A stretch of DNA of 64,000 nucleotides from an uncultured Clostridia bacterium (GCA_944387385.1 CALXES010000003.1:66399-130398), one strand, 5' to 3'; numbered from the stretch's first letter, positions 7,894-62,523 are shown. The notes: generated from the letters alone by a model not told the origin. Program-made: numbers and translations.

Positions 7894-10341
7894 TTGGGAT
7901 ATGTTGATAGATTCATAAAAAAAATATCTTTAGAAAATACCAAATATAAAGAAAAGAAAACTCTTCTACCAAATCTTAGACCTGGTGACATTATCTGGGC
8001 AAAAAGATATTCAAAAGAAGAAGTTCGAGAAAATATTGATTTAGAACATCAAGAAAGCCCTTTTATAGTTATATACAAAAATGAATTAAATATATCATAT
8101 TGTTTAGAATGTAGCTCAAAAGAAGAAACAAAACAACCAAACATAATAAAATTTAAAAAGAAAGACTATCCTCACATACTATATAAAGATACATATGTAA
8201 AACTAAAATCAGATATTGAGCTTACAAGTTATAGATATATAAGAAAAATGGGAAGTTTAACAGTTAGTGACTTTAACATACTAAAAAAGAACTTATTTTT
8301 GCTAATGACAGATGAAGAAAATGCTAAATTATTTAGTTTTACAAAAAGTAAATTAAACTTCTATTTAGACAGTGGTGATTTTATACGCAAAGATGGTGAT
8401 CATTACCTAGTAGGGTATAAAGAAGGGAATACTCTTTATTCATATAGGGCCATAAAAGATGAATTTAATTCAGATATAACAATAAATAGTATTCCATTTA
8501 AAATACGTTATGATAAAAAGATAAAAATTAGTGCCACTGACACTTATATGCTTTTAGGTATATATCATAAATACAAATCATACTTTAAAAAACAAAAATT
8601 TATTGGTTATCATTTAGCTGATATTGGTGACTTAATACAAGTAAATAATAATTATTATCTTGTATATGGAAAATACAAAGAATATCTAGTTGTTATTCAA
8701 GTATACAAAGATATAAAAGGCCTAACAATAAAAACATATGACATTAGTATTAATAATACAAACTATAAAACTGGATATAATTTTTTCCTTCTATCATCTG
8801 AATATGAATACAATATAATATCAAATATTTTAGAATTTGAAATATGTGAATATACAAATAGACTTAAAGACTTAAATATTACTCCTAATTTAAGCACTGA
8901 AAATATTATTGAAACAAATAATTTATCTAATACTACTTTAAGTACATTACAAAAAGAAATACTAAATCAGTTAAAAGAAATGAACTTTAGCTTTGAAGAA
9001 ATTACTAGAATTATGATTGAACTAAAGGGAATAAAAGAACAACTCAAATTTAGAGAATATTTAATAAAAAACTATGATGAAAAAGATAAAGAAATAGTTA
9101 AAAACGCAGCAAGTTATATAGTATCTGATGGTATTTTTAATAATAAATTATTTCTAAAAGAGGGAGATATTATACTTGCAAAAAGAACAAATGATTCAAA
9201 TATTAAAAATAATATAATAAAGGATTATAAATCTATAGGACCATATGTAATAATTTATGTAGATAGAGAAAAAGAAAAAATATATGCCTTGTCAGGAGCT
9301 TATTCAGTAATTAGAGGGCCAAAGACCTTTTTTAAAATAAAATCAAGTTCTACTGAGCTCCAAGAAGATACAATACATTTAAAAAGTATCATTCCTACTG
9401 AAATAACAAAAGATGATTATATAAAAAAAATTGATGAATTACCAAATGAAGAACTAAACACTTTAAGAAAAAAAGTATATGCGATAATGTATTATAATGA
9501 AGATAATAACTTTTTTAATAAGGAAGTCTTATCATATTATAATTCTCCTTTTGACATTATAAATTATAAAAATAACTACTACTTAATATTTGATGAGGAT
9601 GATAAAAACTTTTATTCATATCAGTTATATGAAACTATATATCCTTATCTTAAAATAAATGATATAGGCTATATGGTAAATTTAAGAAATATAACAAAAA
9701 TACCTAAAGATAAAACTTATGAAGTTGTATATATAATTAAACCCAAACTTTTGGATGTAATAAAAAACAAAAAAAGATGGAAAGACATTAAATTACCTAT
9801 AGTAGAAAAAAATATAGAAACTGCAACACAAGGAGATATAATAAATTATAATAATATATATTATTTAGTTTTTGGTGAATATAAAAATTACCTACAACTA
9901 TATAAATTATATACTAAACAGGAAAATAATTTTGCTTGTTCATTTATAGCTGATAGTAAAACTTTTTATACAAATTTCCAAATATATTTAATTTCTAAAA
10001 ATGCAAATATCACAATTACAGATAATGTTAATCAAGATAAGTTAAATGAAATTAACAATATTAGAAAATCATATAAGAAAGTAAATACTATATATAATAC
10101 ACCTTTAGATTATAAAGATGAACAATCACCAAAACTAAATAAAGAACAATTACAACTAATAGATAAATTAAAAGAATATGACTTTTCCGAGGAAGAAATA
10201 ATAGGATACTTAGTTGCACTAAACAACAAATTTGTAATAGATGAGATTTTAGATTTTATTATAAAAAAAGAACAAACTAACACAATTTCAAAAGGTAAAA
10301 TAGGCAGAAGAATAAGAAGAACTGCACGAAAACAAGAATAA
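7894..10341 (+). CDS. large internally duplicated protein with two MazF/PemK-like modules
   Basis: 815 aa; TTG start behind AAGAGGTG. Two ~395-aa halves each carry GDII(W/L)AKR...P(F/Y)(I/V)(V/I)IY, two GD.I...YYL(V/I) beta-repeats and an L..LKE..FS.EEI helix. Confidence 0.6.
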   Translation: MGYVDRFIKKISLENTKYKEKKTLLPNLRPGDIIWAKRYSKEEVRENIDLEHQESPFIVIYKNELNISYCLECSSKEETKQPNIIKFKKKDYPHILYKDTYVKLKSDIELTSYRYIRKMGSLTVSDFNILKKNLFLLMTDEENAKLFSFTKSKLNFYLDSGDFIRKDGDHYLVGYKEGNTLYSYRAIKDEFNSDITINSIPFKIRYDKKIKISATDTYMLLGIYHKYKSYFKKQKFIGYHLADIGDLIQVNNNYYLVYGKYKEYLVVIQVYKDIKGLTIKTYDISINNTNYKTGYNFFLLSSEYEYNIISNILEFEICEYTNRLKDLNITPNLSTENIIETNNLSNTTLSTLQKEILNQLKEMNFSFEEITRIMIELKGIKEQLKFREYLIKNYDEKDKEIVKNAASYIVSDGIFNNKLFLKEGDIILAKRTNDSNIKNNIIKDYKSIGPYVIIYVDREKEKIYALSGAYSVIRGPKTFFKIKSSSTELQEDTIHLKSIIPTEITKDDYIKKIDELPNEELNTLRKKVYAIMYYNEDNNFFNKEVLSYYNSPFDIINYKNNYYLIFDEDDKNFYSYQLYETIYPYLKINDIGYMVNLRNITKIPKDKTYEVVYIIKPKLLDVIKNKKRWKDIKLPIVEKNIETATQGDIINYNNIYYLVFGEYKNYLQLYKLYTKQENNFACSFIADSKTFYTNFQIYLISKNANITITDNVNQDKLNEINNIRKSYKKVNTIYNTPLDYKDEQSPKLNKEQLQLIDKLKEYDFSEEEIIGYLVALNNKFVIDEILDFIIKKEQTNTISKGKIGRRIRRTARKQE

Positions 10342-31631: not shown

Positions 31632-33389
31632 TTAATCATTAACAATCTCTTTAATAATATCAAATATTTTTTGAAAATTAGTAAAATTAAAATTAGAAGA
31701 AAAATCATTATTACAAACTAAATTTGCAAAGTCATCTTTTGTTAAAGCAATTGAGTTTTTTGCTTCTATATCATCTATTAAATAAACTTTTTCATCTATT
31801 ATTCCATTAATATCAACTTTATTTTTAATATTAGATATTTTTGTATAAAATTTTTTATTCTTCGACATACCAGATTTTGTGATAAATTCTTCTCCCAAAA
31901 ATATTCTTCTACCTTCTACATTTTCTTTTAATAAATCCTGTCTATTATAATAATGCTCTATAGATATTTTTTCACCATAATCACCAACAATTGGTATAGA
32001 AAAGGCATATACTTTATTTCCAAGATTTATATATTTATTTTCATATAAATTAAAATCTTTTAGTATCCTTTCATTATCTCTATCAAAAATTCCTATTATT
32101 TTATTAGGTCTCTTTATAAGTTTTAGATTATTTAACAAACTTTGTAGTCTCGAATCTCCCCACGCATTATCAATATTAAGAAATACAATATCCAAATCAT
32201 TTATATTTAATTCTTTCATAGCATTTTCAATATGTTTATTATCAGTTTTTCCTTCTGTAATTATAATAGTAGAATTACTATAAGCCTGTATATCTTTTAT
32301 ATATTTATTTAAAGAAAAAGCTTCTTCAATTACCTCTATAGAATTACAATTATAAAACTCTTTTTTATTAGGCAAAAATACATTTCCTAAGTCATCTTTT
32401 TTTAAAACAATTACTTTATCATTTTTTCTATTTGGACTATGCAATATAAAAGGTGAATGCGTTGCAACAAAAATTTGACATATTTGTTTTCCTGTTTCGT
32501 CAATACACATTCTTCTAAAATATTCAATTATTTTTTGTTGCCATATCGGATGCAAACTTAGTTCTGGCTCATCAATCAGTATTATAGAGCCAGGTAGATT
32601 ATTTAAGTTTTTCAATATAAAACTTCCTCTATAAACAATTTGCTTTTCTCCAGAACTCAATTGATCTATCGGAATGAGTTTATCTTTTCGTCTAAAATAA
32701 ATTTCTTTATATCCATTTTCATTTTTTATGCTATCAAAAACTAAATCATCGCCAAACATATAACTAAAAGCATTTTTAAATCTTCTCATTCTTTTTTCTA
32801 TAACTTCTTCTGGTGGTATTTTTTGAGGATTTTTAATAATCCAATCAGATAACTCTTCTGCATCAGAAGCTTTAATATCTATTAATAATTGAGCTATTTT
32901 TTGTGACAAATCCTGCGTTTGCATTTCACTTTTTATATCCTGATCTAGTTCCATAGCTGTTACAGATTTTATTTTATTATAAGAAAAATTAATTTCTGCA
33001 AGAGAATATATACATTTGCATATATTATTTAGTCCAAAATATACTATTGGTGAGCCAAATATCTTATAATCACTATCATTTTCCTTAAAATAATAAGAAT
33101 TTTCATTAGGAATCTTAATAATATTGAACATTTTACTTTTTATCTGAATAGAATTTTTTTTCAATTTTTTCCTTTCAGAATCAGTAATTTCAAATTCAAT
33201 TTCATAATTATCTTCAACTTTTTCATTTATGAAAATATTAAAAATATCATTTATTATTGTTGTCTTACCACACCCATTTTCTCCAGCCAAAAAAATTATA
33301 TCCTCTGCCTCTCCAGTACTATCTGTAAAGTCTAATTCTATATTTCCTAATACTTTATGATTTTCATATTTAATTTTACGTATTCTCAT
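31632..33389 (-). CDS. OLD-family ATP-dependent endonuclease-like protein (ABC-type ATPase plus C-terminal Toprim)
   Basis: 585 aa; Walker A GENGCGKTT, signature-like LSSGEKQ, Walker B ILIDEPELSLHP, ATHSP. C-terminal ITEGKTD ... IFDRDNE resembles Toprim E and DxD. Own extended -10 promoter and AAGGAG SD. Confidence 0.7.
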   Translation of the reverse strand: MRIRKIKYENHKVLGNIELDFTDSTGEAEDIIFLAGENGCGKTTIINDIFNIFINEKVEDNYEIEFEITDSERKKLKKNSIQIKSKMFNIIKIPNENSYYFKENDSDYKIFGSPIVYFGLNNICKCIYSLAEINFSYNKIKSVTAMELDQDIKSEMQTQDLSQKIAQLLIDIKASDAEELSDWIIKNPQKIPPEEVIEKRMRRFKNAFSYMFGDDLVFDSIKNENGYKEIYFRRKDKLIPIDQLSSGEKQIVYRGSFILKNLNNLPGSIILIDEPELSLHPIWQQKIIEYFRRMCIDETGKQICQIFVATHSPFILHSPNRKNDKVIVLKKDDLGNVFLPNKKEFYNCNSIEVIEEAFSLNKYIKDIQAYSNSTIIITEGKTDNKHIENAMKELNINDLDIVFLNIDNAWGDSRLQSLLNNLKLIKRPNKIIGIFDRDNERILKDFNLYENKYINLGNKVYAFSIPIVGDYGEKISIEHYYNRQDLLKENVEGRRIFLGEEFITKSGMSKNKKFYTKISNIKNKVDINGIIDEKVYLIDDIEAKNSIALTKDDFANLVCNNDFSSNFNFTNFQKIFDIIKEIVND

Positions 33390-33491
33390 TTATATATCTC
33401 CTTATTTTATAAAAATTATATCATTTTTACAAAAATAAGCAACAATAAATAAAAAGAGAAAGCTTTATTTTTTGCTCTCCCTTCTTTATCT

Positions 33492-34178
33492 TTAATAATT
33501 AAGCATAGTATTTTCTTCATGTTTTCTATAGAGTTTTATTATTTTTGCTTGCAAGTTTTCAAGAGCCTTAGCATACCATGTTAATTTTTTAGAATCTAGC
33601 TTTGAAATAGGCTTATTACTTTTATATCTAATATCGTGCTCCATTTCAGACCAAAAATCCATAGCTACAGTTCTAATTTGTATTTCAACTTTTATTATAA
33701 CTGTTTCTCCATTTATTGTAACAGGTGTCTCTACTATTAAATGATATGCTGAATATCCACTTTTTTTAGGATTATATATATAATCTTTTTCTTCTATTAC
33801 CTTTAAAGTTGGTATATTCTCTATTATTTGTTTAATAAAAAAGATATCATCTTTAAGAGGAACTACAATTCTTACACCAGCAATATCATCAATATTATCT
33901 ACTAAAGACTTATATGTAAGAACTATTCCTTTTTTCTTCATCTTATTTATTATACTTGTTTTAGACTTTATTCTAGAATCAATCTTTTCTACCATTGAGT
34001 ATCCATATATTTGATTAATTCTTGCTTTAATACCATTTAATGTACCTACTACTTGATTCATTGCAAGTTCATATATTATCAACAAATCGTTGTATTGTTT
34101 ACTTTCTATGTCAATTTTTTCATCTTCTGTTTTATCTAATTTATTATTTTTAATTATTATATCAGTTCTTGGACTCAC
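33492..34178 (-). CDS. RelA/SpoT-domain small alarmone synthetase (RelQ/RelP-like)
   Basis: 228 aa; DIAGVRIVV, SGYSAYHLIVE and EIQIRTVAMDFWSEMEH motifs. The GTG start sits within the SD-like GGGAGGTGA, so the start is uncertain. Confidence 0.8.
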   Translation of the reverse strand: MSPRTDIIIKNNKLDKTEDEKIDIESKQYNDLLIIYELAMNQVVGTLNGIKARINQIYGYSMVEKIDSRIKSKTSIINKMKKKGIVLTYKSLVDNIDDIAGVRIVVPLKDDIFFIKQIIENIPTLKVIEEKDYIYNPKKSGYSAYHLIVETPVTINGETVIIKVEIQIRTVAMDFWSEMEHDIRYKSNKPISKLDSKKLTWYAKALENLQAKIIKLYRKHEENTMLNY

Positions 34179-34342
34179 CTCCCTTATCTTTCTATTAAGA
34201 TTATATCTTGAATATGAATAATATTCAAATATATTGTGTGTTAATTAGATGAAATTTCTTTCATAATCCATTCTACACAATATTCTTTATTATTTATTTT
34301 ATATATGATATAATTTACTATATTTTAAAGTGGAGGTATTCT

Positions 34343-34996
34343 ATGCAATACTTATTTTTAGATGAGTCAGGAAATTTACACAAAAATAGTCCAGATAGAT
34401 ATTTTGTAATTGGCGGAGTTTTTACAAACAACTATGCTGATATAAAAAAATCATATGTTGAGATTAATCACGAACTCAAAGAAAAGCTTAATATGGATTT
34501 TGAAACAGAACTTAAAGCAGCATATCTTAACATGGAAGAAAAGATGGATATTGTAATAAAATTACAAAAGATGAATGGAATGTACATAGTAGGAATAATT
34601 GTAGATAAAGAAAAAATTGGTGTAGAGATAGATGAAATACATCTATACTATAACTATATAATACGTAAATTAATAGATTATCTTATTAAAATAAAACTTG
34701 TTAAAATGACTGCAAATGAAGAACTATATTTAAATATAGATAAAAGCTCAATGAAAATAGAAGATATAAACTCACTTGAGAATTATTTAAAAACACATTT
34801 TAATATTGAAAGAAGATTTAAATGTAAAATAAATGTATCATATTGGGATTCTAAGAAAAATTATATGGTACAAGTAGCAGATATAATGTGCAATACAATT
34901 TGGAACATTGCTCAGTCTAAAAATCCTATGAGATTATTTAGACATTTAGATAGACATGGAAGACTTAGAATATATAGGCTTATTAAAATTGTTTAA
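34343..34996 (+). CDS. DUF3800 family protein
   Basis: 217 aa; N-terminal LFLDESGN and C-terminal VQVADIMCN motifs; GGAGG SD. Confidence 0.65.
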   Translation: MQYLFLDESGNLHKNSPDRYFVIGGVFTNNYADIKKSYVEINHELKEKLNMDFETELKAAYLNMEEKMDIVIKLQKMNGMYIVGIIVDKEKIGVEIDEIHLYYNYIIRKLIDYLIKIKLVKMTANEELYLNIDKSSMKIEDINSLENYLKTHFNIERRFKCKINVSYWDSKKNYMVQVADIMCNTIWNIAQSKNPMRLFRHLDRHGRLRIYRLIKIV

Positions 34997-36429: not shown

Positions 36430-36459
36430 AAAAAGAAAAAGAGTGCAACTTTGCACTCT
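36430..36459 (-). terminator. rho-independent terminator
   Basis: AGAGTGCAA / TTGCACTCT stem, then a T-rich run on the minus strand. Confidence 0.6.
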
Positions 36460-49391: not shown

Positions 49392-49946
49392 TTAATAATT
49401 GCTGTTTATTCGAGATAATCTTATTTGTTTAATTTCTGTACTAATTCCACCTCTTCTACTTAAGAAATCATAAAAATTACCTTTATTTAATTGCAGTCTT
49501 TTAAATACATTATCGTGTACGATTTCATTTCTCAATAAATTTAATTTTATTCTACCTAAAATTCTATTATGTGTGTACAATTTATCTTCTATATTAAATT
49601 CATTCTCTAATTGTTTTAAAACTCTATAATAGCCATAAGAATATGCAAATAAAACTTGTTTATCATCTTCTTTCTTATAATATTCTAAGAATTTTTCTTT
49701 AACACATTCTTGCAAATCTTCATATTTTGCAATTAATAATTCATGTGGCAATGTATCAAGCCAAGCTCTAACCATTCCTAAATAATTCATTTTTAAATTT
49801 AAAAGCTCAACTTTTTCTTGATTAATATAATTTAAAAGTGGTTTATCATCAAGTTCCTCATAACACCGTATTAATTCATCAATAAAACTCTTTTGATCAT
49901 CAATATTTGCCTCCCAAAAATTAATTTGTAAAATAATATCTCTCAT
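49392..49946 (-). CDS. hypothetical protein
   Basis: 184-aa ORF; AAAGGTGA SD; own terminator hairpin overlapping the stop. No recognisable motifs. Confidence 0.55.
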   Translation of the reverse strand: MRDIILQINFWEANIDDQKSFIDELIRCYEELDDKPLLNYINQEKVELLNLKMNYLGMVRAWLDTLPHELLIAKYEDLQECVKEKFLEYYKKEDDKQVLFAYSYGYYRVLKQLENEFNIEDKLYTHNRILGRIKLNLLRNEIVHDNVFKRLQLNKGNFYDFLSRRGGISTEIKQIRLSRINSNY

Positions 49947-50224
49947 AATTCACCTTTGTTCTCTAAGAACATCCTTTCTATTAGTATTAATTAACTATGC
50001 CATTAACAATTGTTGATGGAAAATATATTAATTTTCACGTGATAATTATATCAAAAAAAGATTTGTTTTGCAATACTTTATGTAAATTAAAGTAAAGTTT
50101 ATAATATTTATATGGTAACATTAATTCTAAGACTGGTAGTTTAGACTGGTACAAATAAAAAAATACCAGTCTAATGACTGGTAAATACTAAAAAATCAAC
50201 GTTCTTCACGAACAAATTGATGTA

Positions 50225-51138: not shown

Positions 51139-52017
51139 TTACATATCAATATTAAGTAATGATAGTAAACTCTCTAATCCTTCTTCATCATTATATTCAA
51201 TTATTAATCTCTGATGTTTTTTTGTCTGATCAAGTTTTACTTTATAACCAAAATAATCTTTTAATTTATTTTCCAAATTTTGATAATAAACAGACTTTGG
51301 TGGTTTTTTTGTATTTTTCTTTCTATATTTGTCATCTCCATATATTAATTTTTCAACATCTCTTACAGTTAATTTTTTTTCTGCTACTTTTTTTGCAATT
51401 GCTATTTGTTTTTCTTTATCTTCAATAGCAAGTAAAGCTCTTGCTTGTCCTTCTACTAATTCTCCTTTTAAAGTCATATTAAGAATCTCGTCTGGTAGTT
51501 TTAATAATCTTGTTATATTAGAAATTGTAGATAAGCTTTTACCTGTAATTTTAGCTACATCTGTACTTGTATATCCTTCTAAATCCATTAATTCTTTAAT
51601 AGCTTGTGCCACTTCTACAATATTTAAATCTTCTCTTTGTATGTTTTCTATAAGGGCGACTTGTTTCTTTTTATTATCCGTATAATCTTTTATTATTGCT
51701 GGAATCGTTTTCAAACCAGCGGCTTTTGCAGCTCTCCATCTTCTTTCACCTGCAACAATTGTATATCCATTATTATCTTTTACAACAAGTATTGGTTGTA
51801 TAACTCCATTTTCACGTATAGAATCCGTTAATTCTTGTAATTTTTCTTTGTCAAATATTTTTCTAGGTTGATTTAACATAGGCTCAATTTCAGTTATATT
51901 AAGTTCTACAACTTTTTCAAGTACTTTTCCTTCATCTTTTTTAGTTACTTTTTTTATTGTATCATCATTATCATCACCAAAAAAAGCATCTAAACCTCTT
52001 CCTAAACCCTTAGCCAT
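51139..52017 (-). CDS. parB: ParB/Spo0J chromosome partitioning protein with an atypical HTH
   Basis: 292 aa; GLGRGLDAFF, GERRWRAAKAAGL (CTP-binding box), IENIQREDLN. HTH reads GKSLSTISNITRLLKLP. Confidence 0.9.
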   Translation of the reverse strand: MAKGLGRGLDAFFGDDNDDTIKKVTKKDEGKVLEKVVELNITEIEPMLNQPRKIFDKEKLQELTDSIRENGVIQPILVVKDNNGYTIVAGERRWRAAKAAGLKTIPAIIKDYTDNKKKQVALIENIQREDLNIVEVAQAIKELMDLEGYTSTDVAKITGKSLSTISNITRLLKLPDEILNMTLKGELVEGQARALLAIEDKEKQIAIAKKVAEKKLTVRDVEKLIYGDDKYRKKNTKKPPKSVYYQNLENKLKDYFGYKVKLDQTKKHQRLIIEYNDEEGLESLLSLLNIDM

Positions 52018-52018
52018 A

Positions 52019-52789
52019 TTAATCCTCCTTTTCTGTTAATTTTATTAGCTCTTTTGCTAATTTTTTATATGTTTCTGCACCTTTTGATTCACTATCATAT
52101 AGTGTAATTGGCAATCCATGACTTGGTGCCTCACTTAGTCTAATATTTCTTGGAATAATAGTCTGAAATACTTTATTTCCAAAATATTTTTCAACTTCTC
52201 TTGCAACCTGTGTAGATAAGTTTGTCCTAGCATCAAACATTGTAAGAATTACTCCTTCAATAATAAAATCTGGATTTAAATGTTTTTGAACAAGTTTAAT
52301 TGTATTAATAAGTTGTCCTAGCCCTTCAAGTGCATAATACTCGCATTGTATTGGTACAAGTACACTATCAGATGCTGTAAATGCATTTAATGTAATAAGA
52401 CCAAGTGATGGTGGGCAATCAATTAGAATATAGTCATACTCATCTTTTATTTTATCTACTGCATCCTTTAATCTATTTTCTCTTGAAACCATTGAAACAA
52501 GTTCAATTTCAGCTCCTGCCAAATTGATATTTGCAGGACAAACTTCTAATTTTTTTACCATTGTTTTTACAATAGTTTCACTTATATCCATATCATCTAC
52601 AAGTACATTATATACTGATTTATCTGTATGAGCTTCAATTCCTAATCCACTTGTTGCATTTCCCTGTGGATCTATATCTATTAATAATACTCTTTTACCT
52701 TTTTGTGCAAGACATGCACTCAAATTAACTGCAGTTGTTGTTTTGCCTACTCCACCTTTTTGATTAGCTATTGATATTACCCTTGCCAT
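52019..52789 (-). CDS. parA: ParA/Soj ATPase
   Basis: 256 aa; deviant Walker A NQKGGVGKTT; DCPPSLG. Confidence 0.93.
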   Translation of the reverse strand: MARVISIANQKGGVGKTTTAVNLSACLAQKGKRVLLIDIDPQGNATSGLGIEAHTDKSVYNVLVDDMDISETIVKTMVKKLEVCPANINLAGAEIELVSMVSRENRLKDAVDKIKDEYDYILIDCPPSLGLITLNAFTASDSVLVPIQCEYYALEGLGQLINTIKLVQKHLNPDFIIEGVILTMFDARTNLSTQVAREVEKYFGNKVFQTIIPRNIRLSEAPSHGLPITLYDSESKGAETYKKLAKELIKLTEKED

Positions 52790-52941
52790 AATGTCACCTC
52801 ACGGTTATTATATTACATTTAAAGAAAAAATAAAAGAGAAAAGAATAAAATTTATATTTTTTAATAGTCGTAATTTGTCTATAAAAATATTGTACACAAA
52901 AAAATAGAGATGTGTACACAACAATCTCTATTCTAATATTT

Positions 52942-53667
52942 TTATAATGTTTTTTTCTTTATTTGACCATAATTTCTTGGGTATTTAGGAGGTGTACACA
53001 TATTTTTTTGTATAATCAAAATATTTCTATGATAATCTTCATTATTAATTGTGTACACATATTCAAAGCACCTATTTATCTTTAGTTTTAAAACATTTAA
53101 AGCGTTTGTAGATAACTTTATTTCTTCCTGTACACTATCACCTTTCATTATTATAGATTTTCCACCAACTTTTACAAATGGACTAATATATTCTAAAAGT
53201 ATTGGTAATTGTGCTACAGCTCTTGATACAGTTGCATCAAACTTTTCTCTAAATTCTTCTTTTCTTGCTTCTTCTTCTGCTCTTCCATGAACTATGTGTA
53301 CATTCTTTAAATCGAGTTTGTTAGCTACTTCTTGTAAAAAAATTAATCTCTTATTTAAAGCATCTAATAAAGTAAATTCTTTATCTTCATAATATATTGC
53401 AAGTACCATACCTGGAAATCCAGCACCAGTACCAATATCTATTATATTTTTTTCATCTTTAATTACCTTTGTACACATTAAACAATCTACAAAGTGTTTA
53501 ACTATTATTTCATGTTCATCTACTATAGCTGTAAGATTCATTTTTTCATTCCACTCAATTAATAAATCTTTGTACACATTTAATTTTTCTGCATGTTTTT
53601 CTGTAAGTTGTATATCTTGCTTTTCACATTCTTTACATAATAATTCTATAAATTCTTCGCTTTTCAT
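52942..53667 (-). CDS. rsmG: 16S rRNA (guanine527-N7)-methyltransferase
   Basis: 241 aa; WNEKMNLTAI and DIGTGAGFPG SAM motifs; conserved position beside mnmG. Confidence 0.92.
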   Translation of the reverse strand: MKSEEFIELLCKECEKQDIQLTEKHAEKLNVYKDLLIEWNEKMNLTAIVDEHEIIVKHFVDCLMCTKVIKDEKNIIDIGTGAGFPGMVLAIYYEDKEFTLLDALNKRLIFLQEVANKLDLKNVHIVHGRAEEEARKEEFREKFDATVSRAVAQLPILLEYISPFVKVGGKSIIMKGDSVQEEIKLSTNALNVLKLKINRCFEYVYTINNEDYHRNILIIQKNMCTPPKYPRNYGQIKKKTL

Positions 53668-53678
53668 ATGAAAACCTC

Positions 53679-55583
53679 CTACTTATTAATATTATGTTGA
53701 CTTAAGTAAATAAGTAAAACAGATATATCAGCTGGAGATACCCCTGATATTCTTGAGGCTTGACCAACAGATAATGGCTTTTGTTTATTTAGCTTTTGTC
53801 TAGCTTCTAAGCAAAGTCCCTTAATTTCATTATAATCTATATTTGGACTAAGTTTTTTACTTTCTAGCTGTTTAAATTCATCAATTTGTTCTTGCTGAAG
53901 TTTTATATATCCTTCATATTTTATTTGAATTTCTGCTTCTTCTGCAACACTTCTTGGTAAATCTTTTCTTTTCTTATCAATTGGAGCTAGACTTTTATAA
54001 CTTAATTCACTTCTTTTGAGTAAATCAGATAACTTGCATCCTGTACTAAGAGGAGAAGAACCAAGAGATTCTAATAATTCATTAACTTGTGTACTTGGTC
54101 TAATAGGTGTTGCTTTAATTCTTTCTATCTCCATTCTAATTAAATCTTTTTTGTGTACAAATTTTTTATATTTTTCTTCACTAACAAGTCCAACTTTATA
54201 TCCCTTTTCTGTAAGTCTTAAATCTGCATTATCTTGTCTTAAGGCAAGTCTATACTCTGCACGTGAAGTCATCATTCTGTAAGGCTCATTTGTTCCTTTA
54301 GTTACTAAATCATCTATTAAAACACCAATATATGCTTCTGATCTATCAAGTATTAATGGCTCTTTATTATCTATCTTTAAAACAGCATTAATTCCTGCAA
54401 TAATTCCTTGTGCAGCAGCTTCTTCATATCCAGAAGATCCATTTACTTGTCCAGCAAAAAATAATCCATCAATTCCTTTATATTCAAGACTTAGCTTTAA
54501 ATTTGTAGAATCAATACAATCATACTCAATTGCATAAGCTGGTCTCATCATTTTAGCATTTTCAAGTCCTGGAACAGATCTATACATCTGAATTTGAACT
54601 TCTTCTGGAAGAGATGATGACATTCCTTGAATGTACATTTCAGAGGTTTTTTCTCCTAAAGGCTCAATAAATAATTGATGTCTTTTCTTATCTGCAAACC
54701 TAACTACTTTATCTTCAATAGATGGACAATATCTAGGACCTGTAGATTTTAATTTCATATCTTTATTATCTGTATATATTGGAGATCTATCTAAATTAGC
54801 TCGAATTATTTTATGAGTTTCTTCAGTTGTGTACGTTAAATAACAAGATACTTGGTTTTTGTGTACAATTTCTTCTTTTCCTTCATTTTCAAAAGAAAAT
54901 GGTACAATCTCTTTATCTCCAAATTGTTCTTCCATCTTAGAAAAGTCAATAGTTTTAGCATTAATTCTAGCAGGTGTACCAGTTTTAAATCTTCTAAGTT
55001 CTATACCCAAATCTAATAGACTTTGAGATAAGTCATTAGCAGGAAAAACACCATCTGGTCCACTCTCGTAAGACACTTCACCAATAATTACTTTTCCTTT
55101 TAAATATGTACCTGTAGCAACTATAACAGCTTTTGTATTAAAAGTAGCTCCAATCTTTGTCTTTACTCCTACCACTTTGTTATTTTCAACTAATATTTTT
55201 ACAATTTCTGCTTGGTACACATCAAGATTTTCTTGTTCTTCCATTGTTTTTTTCATTTCAATATGGTACATTCTTCTATCTGATTGTACACGTAATGAAT
55301 GCACGGCAGGTCCCTTAGATGTATTAAGCATTTTAGATTGAATAAAAGTTTTATCTGCATTTTTTCCCATTTCTCCACCTAAAGCATCTATTTCTCTTAC
55401 TAAATGACCTTTAGATGTACCTCCTATACTTGGATTACATGGCATATTTGCAAGAGTATCCAAGTTAATAACAAATGCTGCTGTTTTTTTACCCATTCTA
55501 GCAGCTGCTAGTGCTGCTTCACATCCAGCATGTCCAGCTCCTATAACAACTACATCATAATCTCCTAAACAATATTCGCTCAT
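53679..55583 (-). CDS. mnmG: tRNA uridine 5-carboxymethylaminomethyl modification enzyme
   Basis: 634 aa; N-terminal FAD fold [26 protein letters not shown]. Confidence 0.95.
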
Positions 55584-55593
55584 CTTATCCTCC

Positions 55594-56967
55594 TTACTTT
55601 CCTAAACAAAACTTTTCAAAAATTTTAGAAATAATATCTTGCGTTACATCTGCACCAATTATTTCTCCTAATGTCTTTGTACACTTTTTAACATATATTG
55701 ATACAATATCTATTGGTTGCCCAAGATTAATTTCATTTTTAGCATCTATTAAGTATTCTATTGATTTTTTTAATAAATCTTTATGTCTTTCATTTGTAAT
55801 TATTAATTCATGTGAATAATCTAAATCTGATACATTAAATAATTTAGTTATCTCATTTTTTAAATTATCTATGCCATCATTTTCTTGTGCTGAAATACAA
55901 ACTGGTTTTTTTATGCCATTTTGTTCTAATTCTTTCAAAATTGTGCTTAAAATCGTTTTTTTAGTCAGATCCATCTTATTTATCACCGGAATATATTTAA
56001 TGCCTTTATTTTCGATTTTAGAAAGAATTTCAAAGTCCTCTTTTGATATTCCTTCCTCTCCATTTATTAAATACAATACTAAATCAACTTCATCTAGAAT
56101 TTTTAAACTTTTTTCTACACCAATTTTTTCTATAATATCATCTGTGTCTCTTATTCCAGCTGTATCTGATATATTTAAAACAATATTTCCAAGATTAATT
56201 GTCTCTTCAACAATATCTCTAGTTGTACCTGGTATATCTGTTACTATAGCTTTTTCATAATTAGCAAGATTATTTAAAAGTGATGACTTACCAACATTTG
56301 GTTTTCCAAGTATTGCAACATTTACTCCATTTTTTATATATTTTCCATGATCGTAAGTATCAAGAATATGTTGAATTTCAGATATTTTTCTATCAAGTAA
56401 GGATATAATACTTGTTGGCTCTACTTCATCATAATCATATTCTGGGTAATCTACACTTACCTCAATATGTGCCATAAGTTCAACTAATTCCTCACGTAAT
56501 GCTTTTATCTTTTTAGATAAATCTCCTTCCATATTTTTAGCTGCAATTCTACTTTCTGTTCTAGTTTTTGCATTTATTAAATTAATAACTGCTTCAGCTT
56601 GAGATAAATCCATTTTTCCATTTAAAAAGGCTCTCTTTGAAAATTCTCCTGGCTCAGCAATAGATGCTCCATTTTCTAAAACAATTTCTAATATATCTTT
56701 TGTAATTTGTGTTCCTCCATGACAGTTAATTTCACATACATCTTCTCCTGTATAAGAATGGGGAGCCTTAAAGTAAGATACTAAAACGTTGTCTATAATT
56801 TCTCCTTTATCTATAATTTTTCCATAAATAATGTGATTTGGCTCTAATTTTGAATTTGATTTAAAAATTTTATTTATTATGTTTAAGCTATCCTTTCCAC
56901 TTATTCTAATAATACTAATACCACTATTAGATAAGGCAGTACCAATAGCAGCAATTGTTGTAGACAT
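55594..56967 (-). CDS. mnmE: tRNA modification GTPase
   Basis: 457 aa; G-domain [12 protein letters not shown] and DTAG; C-terminal CLGK. Confidence 0.95.
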
Positions 56968-59604: not shown

Positions 59605-60674
59605 TATTACTACACCTCCTAAACAATGTATATATATTAAATAATTTTCAACTCAAAAAAATAAATGCTAATCATTTAGTTAATTAAGCATTCAAACATA
59701 ATATAAGTGAAAATATTATACACTATTATATTTTTTTTGTCAACCCCCTCAAGATCTAAAACTAATTGTAAAACACAACAATTTTCCACAAAAGTTATCC
59801 ACAGTTTTTATGTATACTTGTAAATTACAAATTTGACTATCTTTGACCTTAAAAAATCAAATTTATATGTGGATAACTTAAAAGTGATTACAAATTGTAA
59901 TTAAAAATATGTAAAAAATAAACATAAAAACATAAGTTATCCACAGTTTTTACGTAAACTAAACACTGATAGAAATTATATTAAAAAAAATTTTGCGCAG
60001 TTAAATTTTTAATAAAAAATTTTCACAAAAAAAACTTTAGTAAATTCAGTATTTTCAGTATGTTAAAGGTTTCATAATTTTTTTATTTTTTGTGAAAATA
60101 TTTAAAGTTATCCACAGATTTTATGTATATTTATTTTAAAATTTTTTTATGAAAAATCAAGTTATCCACAATTTTATCCACAAAGGTGTGGATAACTTTT
60201 TTTGCTTTTCGGTGTTTCAAAAAAATTTTGTTGTTTTTTACAACTATTATCCACATGGACAACTTTCTTTAATTTTATATATTTTGAATTAATTTTAATT
60301 TACATATGTAAAAGTTTAAAAAAAACATTAATTTATCTGTATTTTACAAATTTACATAAAAATTGTGGATAACTTATTTTTATTTATAAATTACAAAAAA
60401 AAGAATAGGCTATTTTACTGGGTTTTAAAGTGTTTTCTAGTTAAAATTACAAAAATATTTCAAAAACATTGCCAAAATGTTATTTTTTACAATTTTAAAA
60501 GTTATCCACAGAAAATTGTGGATAACCTGTGGATAACTATGTGATAGAATTGTGAAAATAAATTTTTGTCGAAAAGTTATCCACATGGGGTGTGGATAAC
60601 TACACTACTTATCCACAAAGTTATCCACATTAAATGCACCAGTCAAAGCCTTGAAAAAAGCGGATTTTTAAAAG

Positions 60675-60747
60675 TTATCCACATTATCCACACCCCCTAC
60701 TACTACTACTATATATAAAAGAATAAATAACTTAATATTTTAATTAA
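60675..60747. promoter_or_regulatory. candidate basal unwinding element: 2 abutting DnaA boxes, GC cluster, DnaA-trio-like repeats, AT-only stretch
   Basis: TTATCCACA TTATCCACA (60675-60692), CCCCC (60693-60697), (CTA)5 at 60697-60711 (TAG x5 on the other strand), then a G/C-free stretch 60710-60747. Confidence 0.6.
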
Positions 60748-60767
60748 CGCGCGTACGCGCGCGCGTG
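60747..60767. repeat. 21-nt perfectly alternating purine-pyrimidine CG-rich tract
   Basis: ACGCGCGTACGCGCGCGCGTG read directly. Contains the palindrome CGCGCGTACGCGCG. Surrounded by essentially 100% AT sequence. Confidence 0.9.
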
Positions 60768-61110
60768 AGAAAAAAATTGGTTTACATTTTTAGAAATTCT
60801 TTACAAAAAAAAATAAATAAAAAATTTTTTTATTCACAATACATTGTTAAAAATGTTTATAACTATATTATTTTTTTAATTAAAAAGTAAAAAATTAATT
60901 ATATATAAATTTATAAAAAAATTATATTTACTTATTCACATTATAAACATTGAATATAGTTATGACTACAATAATATATAAAAAAATTTTTTATGTGGAA
61001 AATGTGGATAAAATAAATTTTCCAATTTTTTTAATATTGATTTTTTAAAAATATTTTATTATAATAAAGAAAGATATAACGGTTTTATTTTTTTGTAAAG
61101 GAGGGATAAG

Positions 61111-62523
61111 ATGGAAGAGAATTTTATGAATGTTTGGGAAAAAGCTTTGGAAATATTAAAGGATGAAATATCTCAAATAGCATACAATACATATATTGAA
61201 GTAATGGTACCTCGACTTGTAGATAAAAATACTGTTTGTTTTTTATCACCATCTAGTTATTATATTGATATTTGTAAAAAAAGATATCTTGAACTTATTA
61301 GAAATACATTAAAATATTTAACTAGTGTAGATTATCAAATAATATTTGAAGCTAAACCAACAATTCCAGAAAATGGAGACTCTGATTTAGAAGATTTAGA
61401 AATTATTAGAGGACAATATGGGGATATTGAATCAGAAAATTCTGATGAAAAATTAAACCCTATATTAGATAAAGAAAAAATAAGAGAAAAAGCAGGACTT
61501 AATAAAAGATATACTTTTGATAATTTTATTATTGGAAATAACAATCGTTTTGCTAGAGCTACTGCATATTCTGTGTATGAAAATTTAGGACTTACTAATC
61601 CATTATATATATATGGTGGAGTAGGACTTGGAAAGACACACTTAATGCAAGCAATAGGTAATGCTGTAATTGACGAGGATCCCTCTAAAAAGGTTTTTTA
61701 TTGTACAGGTGAGTTATTTGTTAATGAGCTAATAAAAGTCATGTTAAATCCTAAAAATGCAGATTTAAATGATTCCTTTAAAAAGAAGTTTAGAAATGCA
61801 GATTTACTTTTAATAGACGATGTACAAATAATTGCGGGAAAAGATAAATGTCAAGAAGAATTTTTCCACACATTTAATGCTTTATGTGAAAGTGGAAAAC
61901 AAATTGTTCTTACATCTGAAAAACCTCCAAAAGAAATAAATGGACTTGAAGATAGATTAAAAACTAGATTTTCAATGGGAGTAAGTGTTGATATTCAAAC
62001 ACCAGACTATGAGACAAGACTTGCAATATTAAAAAAGAAAGCAGAAGAAGAGAGATATTTAATTGATGATGAAATATTAATAAAAGTTGCAACAAAAGTA
62101 AAATCTAATGTAAGAGAACTTGAAGGAGTTTTTAATAAATTAATGGCTTACACTAAATTTACTAATAATCAGTTAACAGATCCTGTTGTAGATAATATAA
62201 TAGAATCTATTTTAGTAAAAAATAGCAATGTATTATCTAGTACATTGGTAATGCAAGTAGTAGCAAAATTTTTTGATTTAAGAGTAAGTGACTTAACAAG
62301 TGATAAAAGATCTACATCTATTGCATATCCTAGACAAATTGCTATGTATTTGTGTAGAGAAGTAGCAGATATGTCTTTTTCTGCAATAGGAAAAGATTTT
62401 GGTGGAAGAGATCATTCAACTGTATTACATGCATATTCGAAAATAAAGGATGAATATGATAATAATCCAGATACAAAAGATTTAATTGATGATATTAAAA
62501 AGACGTTAGAAAGAGAAAGTTAA
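61111..62523 (+). CDS. dnaA: chromosomal replication initiator protein
   Basis: 470 aa; AAA+ motifs GGVGLGKTHL and LLLIDDVQ; C-terminal DnaA signature IGKDFGGRDHSTVLHA. Confidence 0.97.
   Translation: MEENFMNVWEKALEILKDEISQIAYNTYIEVMVPRLVDKNTVCFLSPSSYYIDICKKRYLELIRNTLKYLTSVDYQIIFEAKPTIPENGDSDLEDLEIIRGQYGDIESENSDEKLNPILDKEKIREKAGLNKRYTFDNFIIGNNNRFARATAYSVYENLGLTNPLYIYGGVGLGKTHLMQAIGNAVIDEDPSKKVFYCTGELFVNELIKVMLNPKNADLNDSFKKKFRNADLLLIDDVQIIAGKDKCQEEFFHTFNALCESGKQIVLTSEKPPKEINGLEDRLKTRFSMGVSVDIQTPDYETRLAILKKKAEEERYLIDDEILIKVATKVKSNVRELEGVFNKLMAYTKFTNNQLTDPVVDNIIESILVKNSNVLSSTLVMQVVAKFFDLRVSDLTSDKRSTSIAYPRQIAMYLCREVADMSFSAIGKDFGGRDHSTVLHAYSKIKDEYDNNPDTKDLIDDIKKTLERES

Follow-up and report, generated by a model that had tools for sequence, protein, structure and literature searches.

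A clade-specific array of short palindromes upstream of parAB in uncultured Clostridia: a candidate centromere-like site

Across bacteria, chromosomal parS is considered nearly invariant, as are the ParB residues that recognise it. A locus in an uncultured Clostridia bacterium raises the question of whether a main chromosome may use a different site. The locus lies in a stretch of 64,000 nucleotides (GCA_944387385.1 CALXES010000003.1:66399-130398; hereafter the window), which is an origin region of about 26% GC with a GC skew that turns at around 60 kb (minimum at oriC). An array of short palindromes stands there directly upstream of the partition genes parA and parB, 4-8 kb from oriC. What are these sites for, and which protein reads them?

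On the favoured reading, the array consists of about 17 short putative binding sites with the core GTGTACAC that evolved recently close to the origin, and the adjacent ParAB system most likely uses it as a centromere-like platform for nucleation. The ParB of the window, in which Arg173 is changed to Leu and Gln162 to Ser, would load at the array and not at canonical parS. Many close sites would raise ParB occupancy beside oriC, serving ParA-driven segregation and possibly SMC loading. A centromere-like nucleation array read by a re-specified ParB is a tentative explanation, somewhat short of an even chance. Three things are inferred from the sequence: binding of the sites by a protein, the identity of that protein as ParB, and a role of the complex in partition.

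The array and the selection acting on it

Sixteen sites with the hexamer GTGTAC or its complement GTACAC are found between 52891 and 55685, exactly as listed in the original prediction, and they account for 19 strand matches. A 17th site, which that prediction had missed, lies in parA at 52360-52365, and the whole array comprises 17 sites over 3.3 kb (52360-55684). About 0.35 sites are expected per 2.8 kb, and about 0.8 strand matches. Across the window, GTGTAC was counted 36 times on both strands, against 7.94 +/- 3.04 in dinucleotide shuffles; TGTACA was observed 36 times against 15.7 expected, and 13 of these fall in 52891-55685. When this interval was compared with the rest of the window under a Poisson model, GTACAC (p=1e-19) and GTGTACA (p=3e-18) ranked first, with other k-mers far behind. 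Outside the array, the window holds 16 background sites, above the 'about a dozen' given earlier.

The array is real and confined to one sub-clade. The survey of motif frequency covers about 77 kb around oriC, and from -60 to +13 kb the array is the sole cluster of its kind, in line with the origin-proximal clustering that had been proposed. Leftward of the locus, GTGTAC stays at background level over 49 kb, and a single match is present in the 11 kb beyond dnaA, on the far side of oriC.

The motif was profiled from 35 sites, pooled from the window and a relative of 87% DNA identity. The information resides in a GTAC dyad, followed on each side by A (83%) and then C (56%), which gives the 8-bp palindromic consensus GTGTACAC. 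Most array sites read GTGTACA and so agree with the consensus at 7 of 8 positions. In the pooled sites, no position from 5 to 10, counted from the dyad, holds more than 0.1 bit. The recurring extended forms that had been described were not upheld, because positions beyond the 8-bp core carry no information. Asymmetric forms of the motif are split 6 to 7 between the strands, and their occurrence in both directions rules out an RNA-level, strand-specific or replication-oriented signal. A propensity for Z-DNA or alternating purines and pyrimidines was rejected, as the enrichment is confined to one specific sequence. The sites were also considered as promoters or extended -10 elements; the spacing is unsuitable, and TACAAT occurs in only 3 sites.

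The form of the motif bears on whether the sites are methyltransferase targets (GTGTAC or TGTACA) that make up an epigenetic or sequestration element near the origin. Palindromes of 6-8 bp are typical of Type II methyltransferase specificity, and GTAC overall is four times denser inside the array than outside. The place beside mnmG (gidA) near oriC also recalls Escherichia coli, in which SeqA binds GATC clusters around oriC and gidA. Nevertheless, methylation is an improbable explanation. The enrichment is specific to GTGTAC, and other contexts of GTAC are hardly raised. Neither oriC nor the dnaA promoter holds a single GTGTAC, and no methyltransferase or restriction-modification gene is encoded in the window. 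In the array clade, the motif background is not depleted, so restriction avoidance is not seen.

A cluster of weak DnaA boxes that titrates DnaA, like datA and the DnaA-box clusters of Bacillus, was weighed as well and is very improbable. The array is origin-proximal, and five sites read TTGTACACA, one base off the E. coli R2 box TTATACACA. Other bacteria do use DnaA-box variants that carry G at position 3 or A at position 5. However, oriC in the window is a field of canonical DnaA boxes between rpmH/rnpA and dnaA (59782-61011) that is free of GTGTAC. Its 20 perfect TTATCCACA boxes (59795-61011; dnaA at 61111) carry A at position 3. The array motif, by contrast, is palindromic, its invariant GTAC puts G at box position 3, and box positions 1-2 are not conserved; the array sites do not follow the DnaA-box consensus TTATCCACA (TTWTNCACA). 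Selection by DnaA would not fix G3 and the GTAC dyad in an AT-rich genome. Moreover, TTATACACA is not enriched, and DnaA is common to the sister clades that lack the array.

Most of the array lies within genes, and selection on the DNA was examined through codons. Protein sequences were kept fixed and synonymous codons were redrawn 2000 times from local codon usage. Seven motif matches were observed in mnmG against 1.1 expected, and eight in rsmG against 2.6; in neither gene did any of the 2000 redraws reach the observed number. The array-less outgroup L007 has 0 motif matches across all five genes. Some sites were built by synonymous changes to G/C-ending codons against the AT bias (GTT to GTG, TAT to TAC, AGA to CGT, ACT to ACA), and according to outgroup codon alignments at least nine amino-acid replacements in the conserved proteins MnmE, MnmG and RsmG created sites. 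The codon redraws, the outgroup codons and the conservation of the sites confirm that selection targets the DNA and not a peptide, as the original prediction had argued. The array is under both positive and purifying selection at the DNA level, and a coding by-product is excluded. As MnmG and RsmG show, selection for sites in the DNA can prevail over codon bias and over the conservation of amino acids.

Chance, codon usage or amino-acid composition is a practically negligible source of the array. An AT-rich, repetitive genome is all that speaks for it. Dinucleotide and synonymous-codon shuffles never reach the counts, the orthologous genes of eight sister lineages hold 0-1 sites, and the array sites are conserved above background.

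The array starts within the 5' part of parA, crosses the parA-rsmG spacer, covers rsmG and mnmG, and stops at the 3' end of mnmE. Pfam agrees with the assignments made earlier for these genes and for parB. All of them are on the minus strand: parA (52019-52789; AAA_31/CbiA/ParA), which encodes a Soj-type Walker ATPase of 256 aa, rsmG (52942-53667), mnmG (53679-55583) and mnmE (55594-56967). The sites occur in intergenic DNA, in the loop of the rsmG terminator and in all three codon phases, a placement that had been described correctly.

The parA site is GTGTACT (52360-52365, minus strand) in the codons AGT GTA CTT, where GTA is synonymous with outgroup GTG or GTT. An intergenic GTGTACA (52891-52897, minus strand) follows the T-run of the rsmG terminator and lies upstream of the parA promoter. 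The two perfect 10-bp palindromes TGTGTACACA and the single GTGTACAC had been located correctly. The first TGTGTACACA (52911-52920) lies in the hairpin loop of the rsmG terminator (stems 52903-52911 and 52924-52932); the hairpin of the outgroups has an unrelated loop. GTGTACAC (52992-52999) is at the 3' end of rsmG in the codons ATG TGT ACA CCT, where outgroups have SSNTP or IGNTP. The second TGTGTACACA (53050-53059) reads GTG TAC ACA in rsmG, against AAT TAT GTT or TCA TAT ACT in outgroups. Four further rsmG sites are GTGTACA: 53129-53135 (minus strand), 53296-53302 (plus strand), which arises from a K-to-H change relative to outgroups, 53470-53476 (minus strand), with a flanking codon changed from E to M, and 53571-53577 (minus strand), from an I/M-to-V change plus TAT to TAC.

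Three of the mnmG sites, all on the plus strand, differ from outgroups in the encoded protein: 54089-54094 (PSTQV vs PTDEV or PTEEV), 54153-54159 (FVHK vs FLEK) and 54861-54867 (IVHK vs ILNK). The other four are synonymous, namely 54829-54834 (plus strand; ACG TAC ACA vs ACA TAT ACA), 54974-54979 (plus strand; ACA vs ACT), 55215-55220 (minus strand; GTG vs GTT) and 55285-55291 (minus strand; CGT vs AGA). The site at the 3' end of mnmE (55678-55684, minus strand) encodes KKCTK, where the outgroup has KKSTK.

The array clade and its ParB

Relatives were found through a search for ParB homologues, and about 20 kb around parB was compared for 13 lineages. They form a graded series of uncultured, mostly gut, Clostridia. 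The same array, with 17-18 sites, is present in every locus whose ParB is 92-100% identical (L003-L006, L013, L014, L119). It is restricted to the sub-clade with ParBs at least 87% identical to that of the window. In contrast, eight sister lineages with ParBs of 81-86% identity (L001, L007-L012, L015, L016) have 0-1 sites in the syntenic genes and 1-5 GTGTAC matches per 20 kb overall. No substitute array was found in these sisters: a scan for local k-mer clusters over 3 kb, k-mer enrichment and a search for repeated palindromes returned DnaA boxes only. GACTTA was rejected as a sister-clade motif, as it is dispersed and reflects codons.

Over 5 kb, the window and L005, which represent two sub-lineages of the array clade, are 86.7% identical (13% divergence); this is almost the distance of either from the outgroup (83.4% identity). 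Nonetheless, the two share 15 of 19 motif hexamers, whereas the shared fraction over all hexamers is 42% (p=0.001). Private site gains are also seen in each sub-lineage. The shared sites and the private gains indicate that the array arose once, is maintained and is still growing. This pattern of conservation plus turnover suggests that the number or density of sites may be what matters.

Canonical parS (TGTTNCACGTGAAACA) has no match with 0-1 mismatches in the 64 kb, as the original prediction had stated, nor anywhere from -60 to +13 kb of oriC. At up to two mismatches, none was found in the relatives L001 and L002, and a search for the 12-bp core in L001-L012 gave only degenerate matches. A two-mismatch match at 51742-51757 was rejected. 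It encodes IVAGER of ParB and is a coding coincidence, because the synonymous positions drift freely among relatives.

The parB gene (51139-52017, minus strand; Pfam ParB_N, HTH_ParB, ParB_C) is encoded together with the Walker-type ParA in an operon about 8 kb from the DnaA-box field, and its product is the only ParB of the window. The cytidine triphosphate (CTP) motif GERRWRA (GERRWRAAKAAG) is intact and invariant in the family, and the helix-turn-helix (HTH) is intact as well. The recognition region reads YTSTDVAKITGKSLSTISNITRLL. In alignments to the solved ParBs 7BNK, 1VZ0 and 4UMK, Ser151 corresponds to Caulobacter Gln162 and Leu162 to Arg173, where GK(S/A/E)R has its conserved Arg. Among the 146 nearest full-length representatives at 50% clustering, drawn from a library of 1.8 billion proteins, the Arg173 position is Arg in all 146 and the Gln162 position is Gln in 133. 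Both residues are among those that contact parS (Jalal et al., PMC7383237). R173 hydrogen-bonds guanine 1 of parS, is absolutely conserved in ParB orthologues and is invariable among the parS-specific variants of a library of 160,000 (PMC7383237). The window ParB lacks a residue needed for the recognition of canonical parS and cannot read that site in the usual manner.

All relatives at least 80% identical to the window ParB are without Arg173 and have Val, Ile, Leu, Ala, Asp or Thr instead; therefore the whole lineage has a non-canonical ParB, which fits the absence of canonical parS. The lineage's ParB family forms one cluster at 50% identity, and the nearest ParB outside it is 50% identical. 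The array clade (52 members, compared with 68 others) is set apart by only three diagnostic substitutions: Ser151, Leu162 and Pro239. Two of the three are DNA-contact positions, and both were changed on the branch on which the array arose. A post hoc test, weighted by site variability in the other relatives, gives a probability of 0.002 that two or more of the three would hit the 8 contact positions. With a non-canonical ParB and an array upstream of the partition genes, in a place where a centromere would be expected, the locus looks like a newly evolved centromere-like site.

ParB or another reader

Several observations weigh against ParB as the reader. Only the 8-bp core of the motif carries information and its flanks are empty, unlike the 13-16-bp sites of the ParB family. 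To our knowledge, all characterised ParB-family sites are 13-16-bp palindromes or sets of heptamer boxes. Half-sites that reach 4 bp from the dyad are hard to reconcile with two ParB HTHs that each read 7-8 bp over a 16-bp palindrome. The core resembles neither parS (TTTCAC) nor the Noc-binding site (NBS), and the genome-wide frequency of the motif is represented by the 77 kb around oriC only. Moreover, the statistic for the co-occurrence of the array and the ParB contact changes is, as said, post hoc.

The protein itself raises further doubts. The window ParB retains the residues that read the inner core of parS (Gly170, Lys171, Ser172, Asn178, Gly201 and Arg204), of which Gly201, Asn178 and Arg204 (Gly190, Asn167 and Arg193 in the window's numbering) are invariant in the family. 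Positions 151, 162 and 169 are among the most variable of the family, even in lineages without the array. Such variability in an otherwise invariant HTH points to DNA specificity that evolves rapidly or, alternatively, to relaxed reading of the outer bases. The eight sister lineages have equally non-canonical ParBs and carry no array. In L009, which has no array, the recognition helix departs from that of the window at a single residue, Val in place of Leu162. This comparison covers the helix; at position 151, all array-less relatives have Gln or Asn.

A rival candidate for the ParB site is ATTTTCACGTGATAAT (50031-50046), a parS-like near-palindrome downstream of parB at a distance of 1.1 kb. 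The parS core is present, T replaces G at the position read by Arg173, and the element is conserved in the clade (L003 11972; L005 ~11420). The retained inner-core residues would fit a parS-like site of this kind better than the array. ATTTTCACGTGATAAT also overlaps a -10 box about 85 bp upstream of a clade-specific open reading frame (ORF) of 184 aa, so an operator is equally possible, and the element may be either a degenerate parS or an operator.

The 184-aa ORF (49392-49946, minus strand) adjoins parB, has no family match and occurs in the array clade only, with 54% identity in L005. It contains an RNEIVH motif (Rx4H, HEPN-like). A satellite group of GTGTAC sites (49127, 49515 and 49573) is private to the sub-lineage of the window, and two of these sites are inside the ORF.

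A second element that resembles the parS core, TTTCACATGAAA, also weighs against ParB as the reader of the array. It is found at the rsmG start codon in every sister lineage, in L011 as the exact reverse complement with a GTG start. In all lineages the rsmG start codon falls within the 12-bp element TTTCAYRTGAAA, the sole exact match per 20-kb locus (window 53661-53674; L001 7388; L007 8361; L009 8309 and 8335; L010 8392; L011 7203; L012 8363). In L009 the element is duplicated without the start context, and in the array clade it is degraded to TTTCATATGAAA. It may be a mere translation-initiation context.

These points lead to another possible reader. The array could be the platform of a different, lineage-specific DNA-binding protein encoded outside the window, which is a serious possibility, only slightly less probable than ParB as the reader. 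Such a protein would be a small dimer (ribbon-helix-helix or small HTH) that acts in origin anchoring, nucleoid organisation or the titration of a regulator, and ParB would use a degenerate parS-like site. A compact 8-bp palindrome without flanks suits small dimers better than ParB. The inner-core parS contacts kept in ParB, the clade-conserved ATTTTCACGTGATAAT with T at the Arg173-read position close to parB, and the absence of the array in sister clades with similar ParBs also favour it. In addition, TGTGTACACA is repeated in many unrelated phages, so readers of exactly that palindrome exist.

On the other hand, no candidate gene was found in the window, which encodes no extra ParB, ribbon-helix-helix protein or methyltransferase. 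The local clade-specific genes are a Crp/Fnr regulator, nrdDG and the 184-aa HEPN-like ORF. The Crp/Fnr family recognises 14-bp spaced palindromes; this regulator, the HEPN-like ORF and a ParA-like kinase of the capsule locus were all unconvincing as readers. A separate reader would also leave the two ParB contact changes on the same branch unexplained. The phage matches are only about twice those of control palindromes: pairs of TGTGTACACA occur in 43 + 24 viral stretches, some just upstream of terminase genes, against 23 and 19 for two controls. With this weak excess and no recurring adjacent protein family, the phage data give no lead. Several unrelated phage stretches (L028, L041, L044, L049, L053, L058) carry 2-5 copies of TGTGTACACA immediately upstream of a small ORF and the terminase large subunit (phrog_2), and these clusters may be pac/cos sites or control sites of late operons.

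The original prediction of a non-canonical centromere read by ParB thus holds in part. It agrees with the position of the array, the absence of parS and the loss of Arg173 and Gln162 as a diagnostic of the array clade. It is at odds with the compact motif, the inner-core residues kept in ParB, the sisters without the array and the presence of ATTTTCACGTGATAAT. The array shows the clustered motif and the DNA-level selection of a centromere-like site array, and the array-ParB pair lacks two defining features of canonical ParB-parS, Arg173 and the parS sequence.

Known systems were compared with the proposed nucleation by ParB. Clustered parS sites have precedents in Myxococcus xanthus (22 sites) and Corynebacterium glutamicum (10) (PMC7022226). 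Similarly, the array has its copies near parAB and oriC, within and between genes, beside a ParA and a ParB with an intact CTP motif. In contrast to those systems, its sequence is unrelated to TGTTNCACGTGAAACA, its core is 8 bp instead of a 16-bp palindrome, and its ParB is without Arg173. We know of no parS case with a density as high as 17 sites in 3.3 kb.

The specificity of ParB was switched to that of Noc, from parS to NBS, at residues 173, 179, 184 and 201 (PMC7383237). The window ParB is likewise altered at 173, the reader of the outer half-site base, and has Lys at the permissive position 184. However, Noc is a paralogue that coexists with ParB and has sites scattered over the chromosome. 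Here the sole ParB is changed, to Leu and not Gln, with Gly201 retained, and the candidate sites, which do not resemble parS, lie in one cluster. The window ParB is not a Noc: it has Leu, Gly and Ile/Lys where Noc has Gln173, Arg201 and Lys179/184, the clustered motif is unrelated to ATTTCCCGGGAAAT, and the NCBIfam Noc model gives 222 bits against a cut-off of 315.

Private palindromes of ParB-family proteins are also known, for instance the divergent parS gTTTATGCGCATAAAc on Burkholderia chromosome 2 (PMC7022226) and the OB sites of KorB. Unlike the array, these sites are 13-16-bp palindromes on secondary replicons or plasmids, and they do not serve the only ParB of a main chromosome. The Type Ib/II plasmid centromeres (the omega heptads of pSM19035, ParG/parH, ParR/parC) share with the locus an array of short repeats in both orientations upstream of a small Walker ParA operon. 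Their repeats are 7-11 bp, contiguous and intergenic, and their reader is a ribbon-helix-helix protein from the same operon. Here, the sites are dispersed through genes and the window encodes no such protein.

Short motifs bound by a chromosomal ParB are found in Pseudomonas aeruginosa, where ParB binds 7-nt half-parS heptamers (PMC7022226). In contrast to the array, these are halves of canonical parS, lie genome-wide and do not support spreading. Finally, RacA/ram, RefZ/RBM of Bacillus, SlmA/SBS (GTGAGTACTCAC), DnaA-box clusters and datA mark the origin as the array may do, and the SlmA site shares the GTAC dyad. These origin-region sites are spread over hundreds of kilobases, are 12-20 bp long and are conserved across genera. 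The array, unlike them, is one 3.3-kb cluster in one sub-clade.

In the literature, nothing relevant was found for TGTGTACACA, GTGTACAC or 'non-canonical parS'. If the array is the ParB site, the window ParB would be the first on a main chromosome to have its centromere reprogrammed to something other than parS. The sister lineages would bracket the transition and provide a natural counterpart to the engineered ParB-to-Noc switch, and orthogonal pairs of ParB and site for DNA labelling would follow. Given the fast-evolving specificity residues of the lineage, the co-evolution of ParB and centromere could then be watched at the species level. The strongest form of this proposal is a recent natural replacement of the centromere of a main chromosome, in which ParB was re-specified to an 8-bp palindrome unrelated to parS and about 17 copies were written into essential housekeeping genes; as such it is rather unlikely. 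If the reader is another protein, these uncultured and abundant gut Clostridia would possess a new nucleoprotein element close to the origin.

Other features of the origin region

The genes of the locus are ordered leftward on the minus strand as yidC, jag, mnmE, mnmG, rsmG, parA and parB, followed by two tRNA genes. Between rsmG and parA, extra ORFs without a Pfam match are present in L011 (8050-9135, 361 aa) and L016 (8315-9068, 50 aa and 190 aa). This gap is the place held by noc in Bacillus.

Further from the array, an ORF of 815 aa (7894-10341) is without a Pfam match. A possible islet of defence or stress genes (31632-34996) comprises an AAA_21/AbiEii-type ATPase (585 aa), a small synthetase with a RelA_SpoT domain (228 aa) and a DUF3800 protein. 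AGTGCAANNTTGCACT at 36442, which is also found in L007, was rejected as a site family, as it occurs in single copies only. The 16-bp palindrome AGTGCAA(CT/AT)TTGCACT is present once in the window (36442-36457) and once in L007 (18983-18998), and is probably a conserved operator.

Within oriC, an unwinding module (60675-60770) consists of two tandem DnaA boxes GTTATCCACATTATCCACA, followed by CCCCC, (TAC)4 and an AT-rich tract. About 40 bp further along stands the GC-rich alternating purine-pyrimidine sequence ACGCGCGTACGCGCGCGCGTG, which all relatives conserve in the form (CG)nCA(CG)n despite their 25% GC. In the sister lineages, the DnaA boxes of oriC are mostly extended as TTATCCACAG(G), with 11-17 copies of CTGTGGA (L001, L007, L010-L012, L015, L016). 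This extension is much weaker in the array clade.

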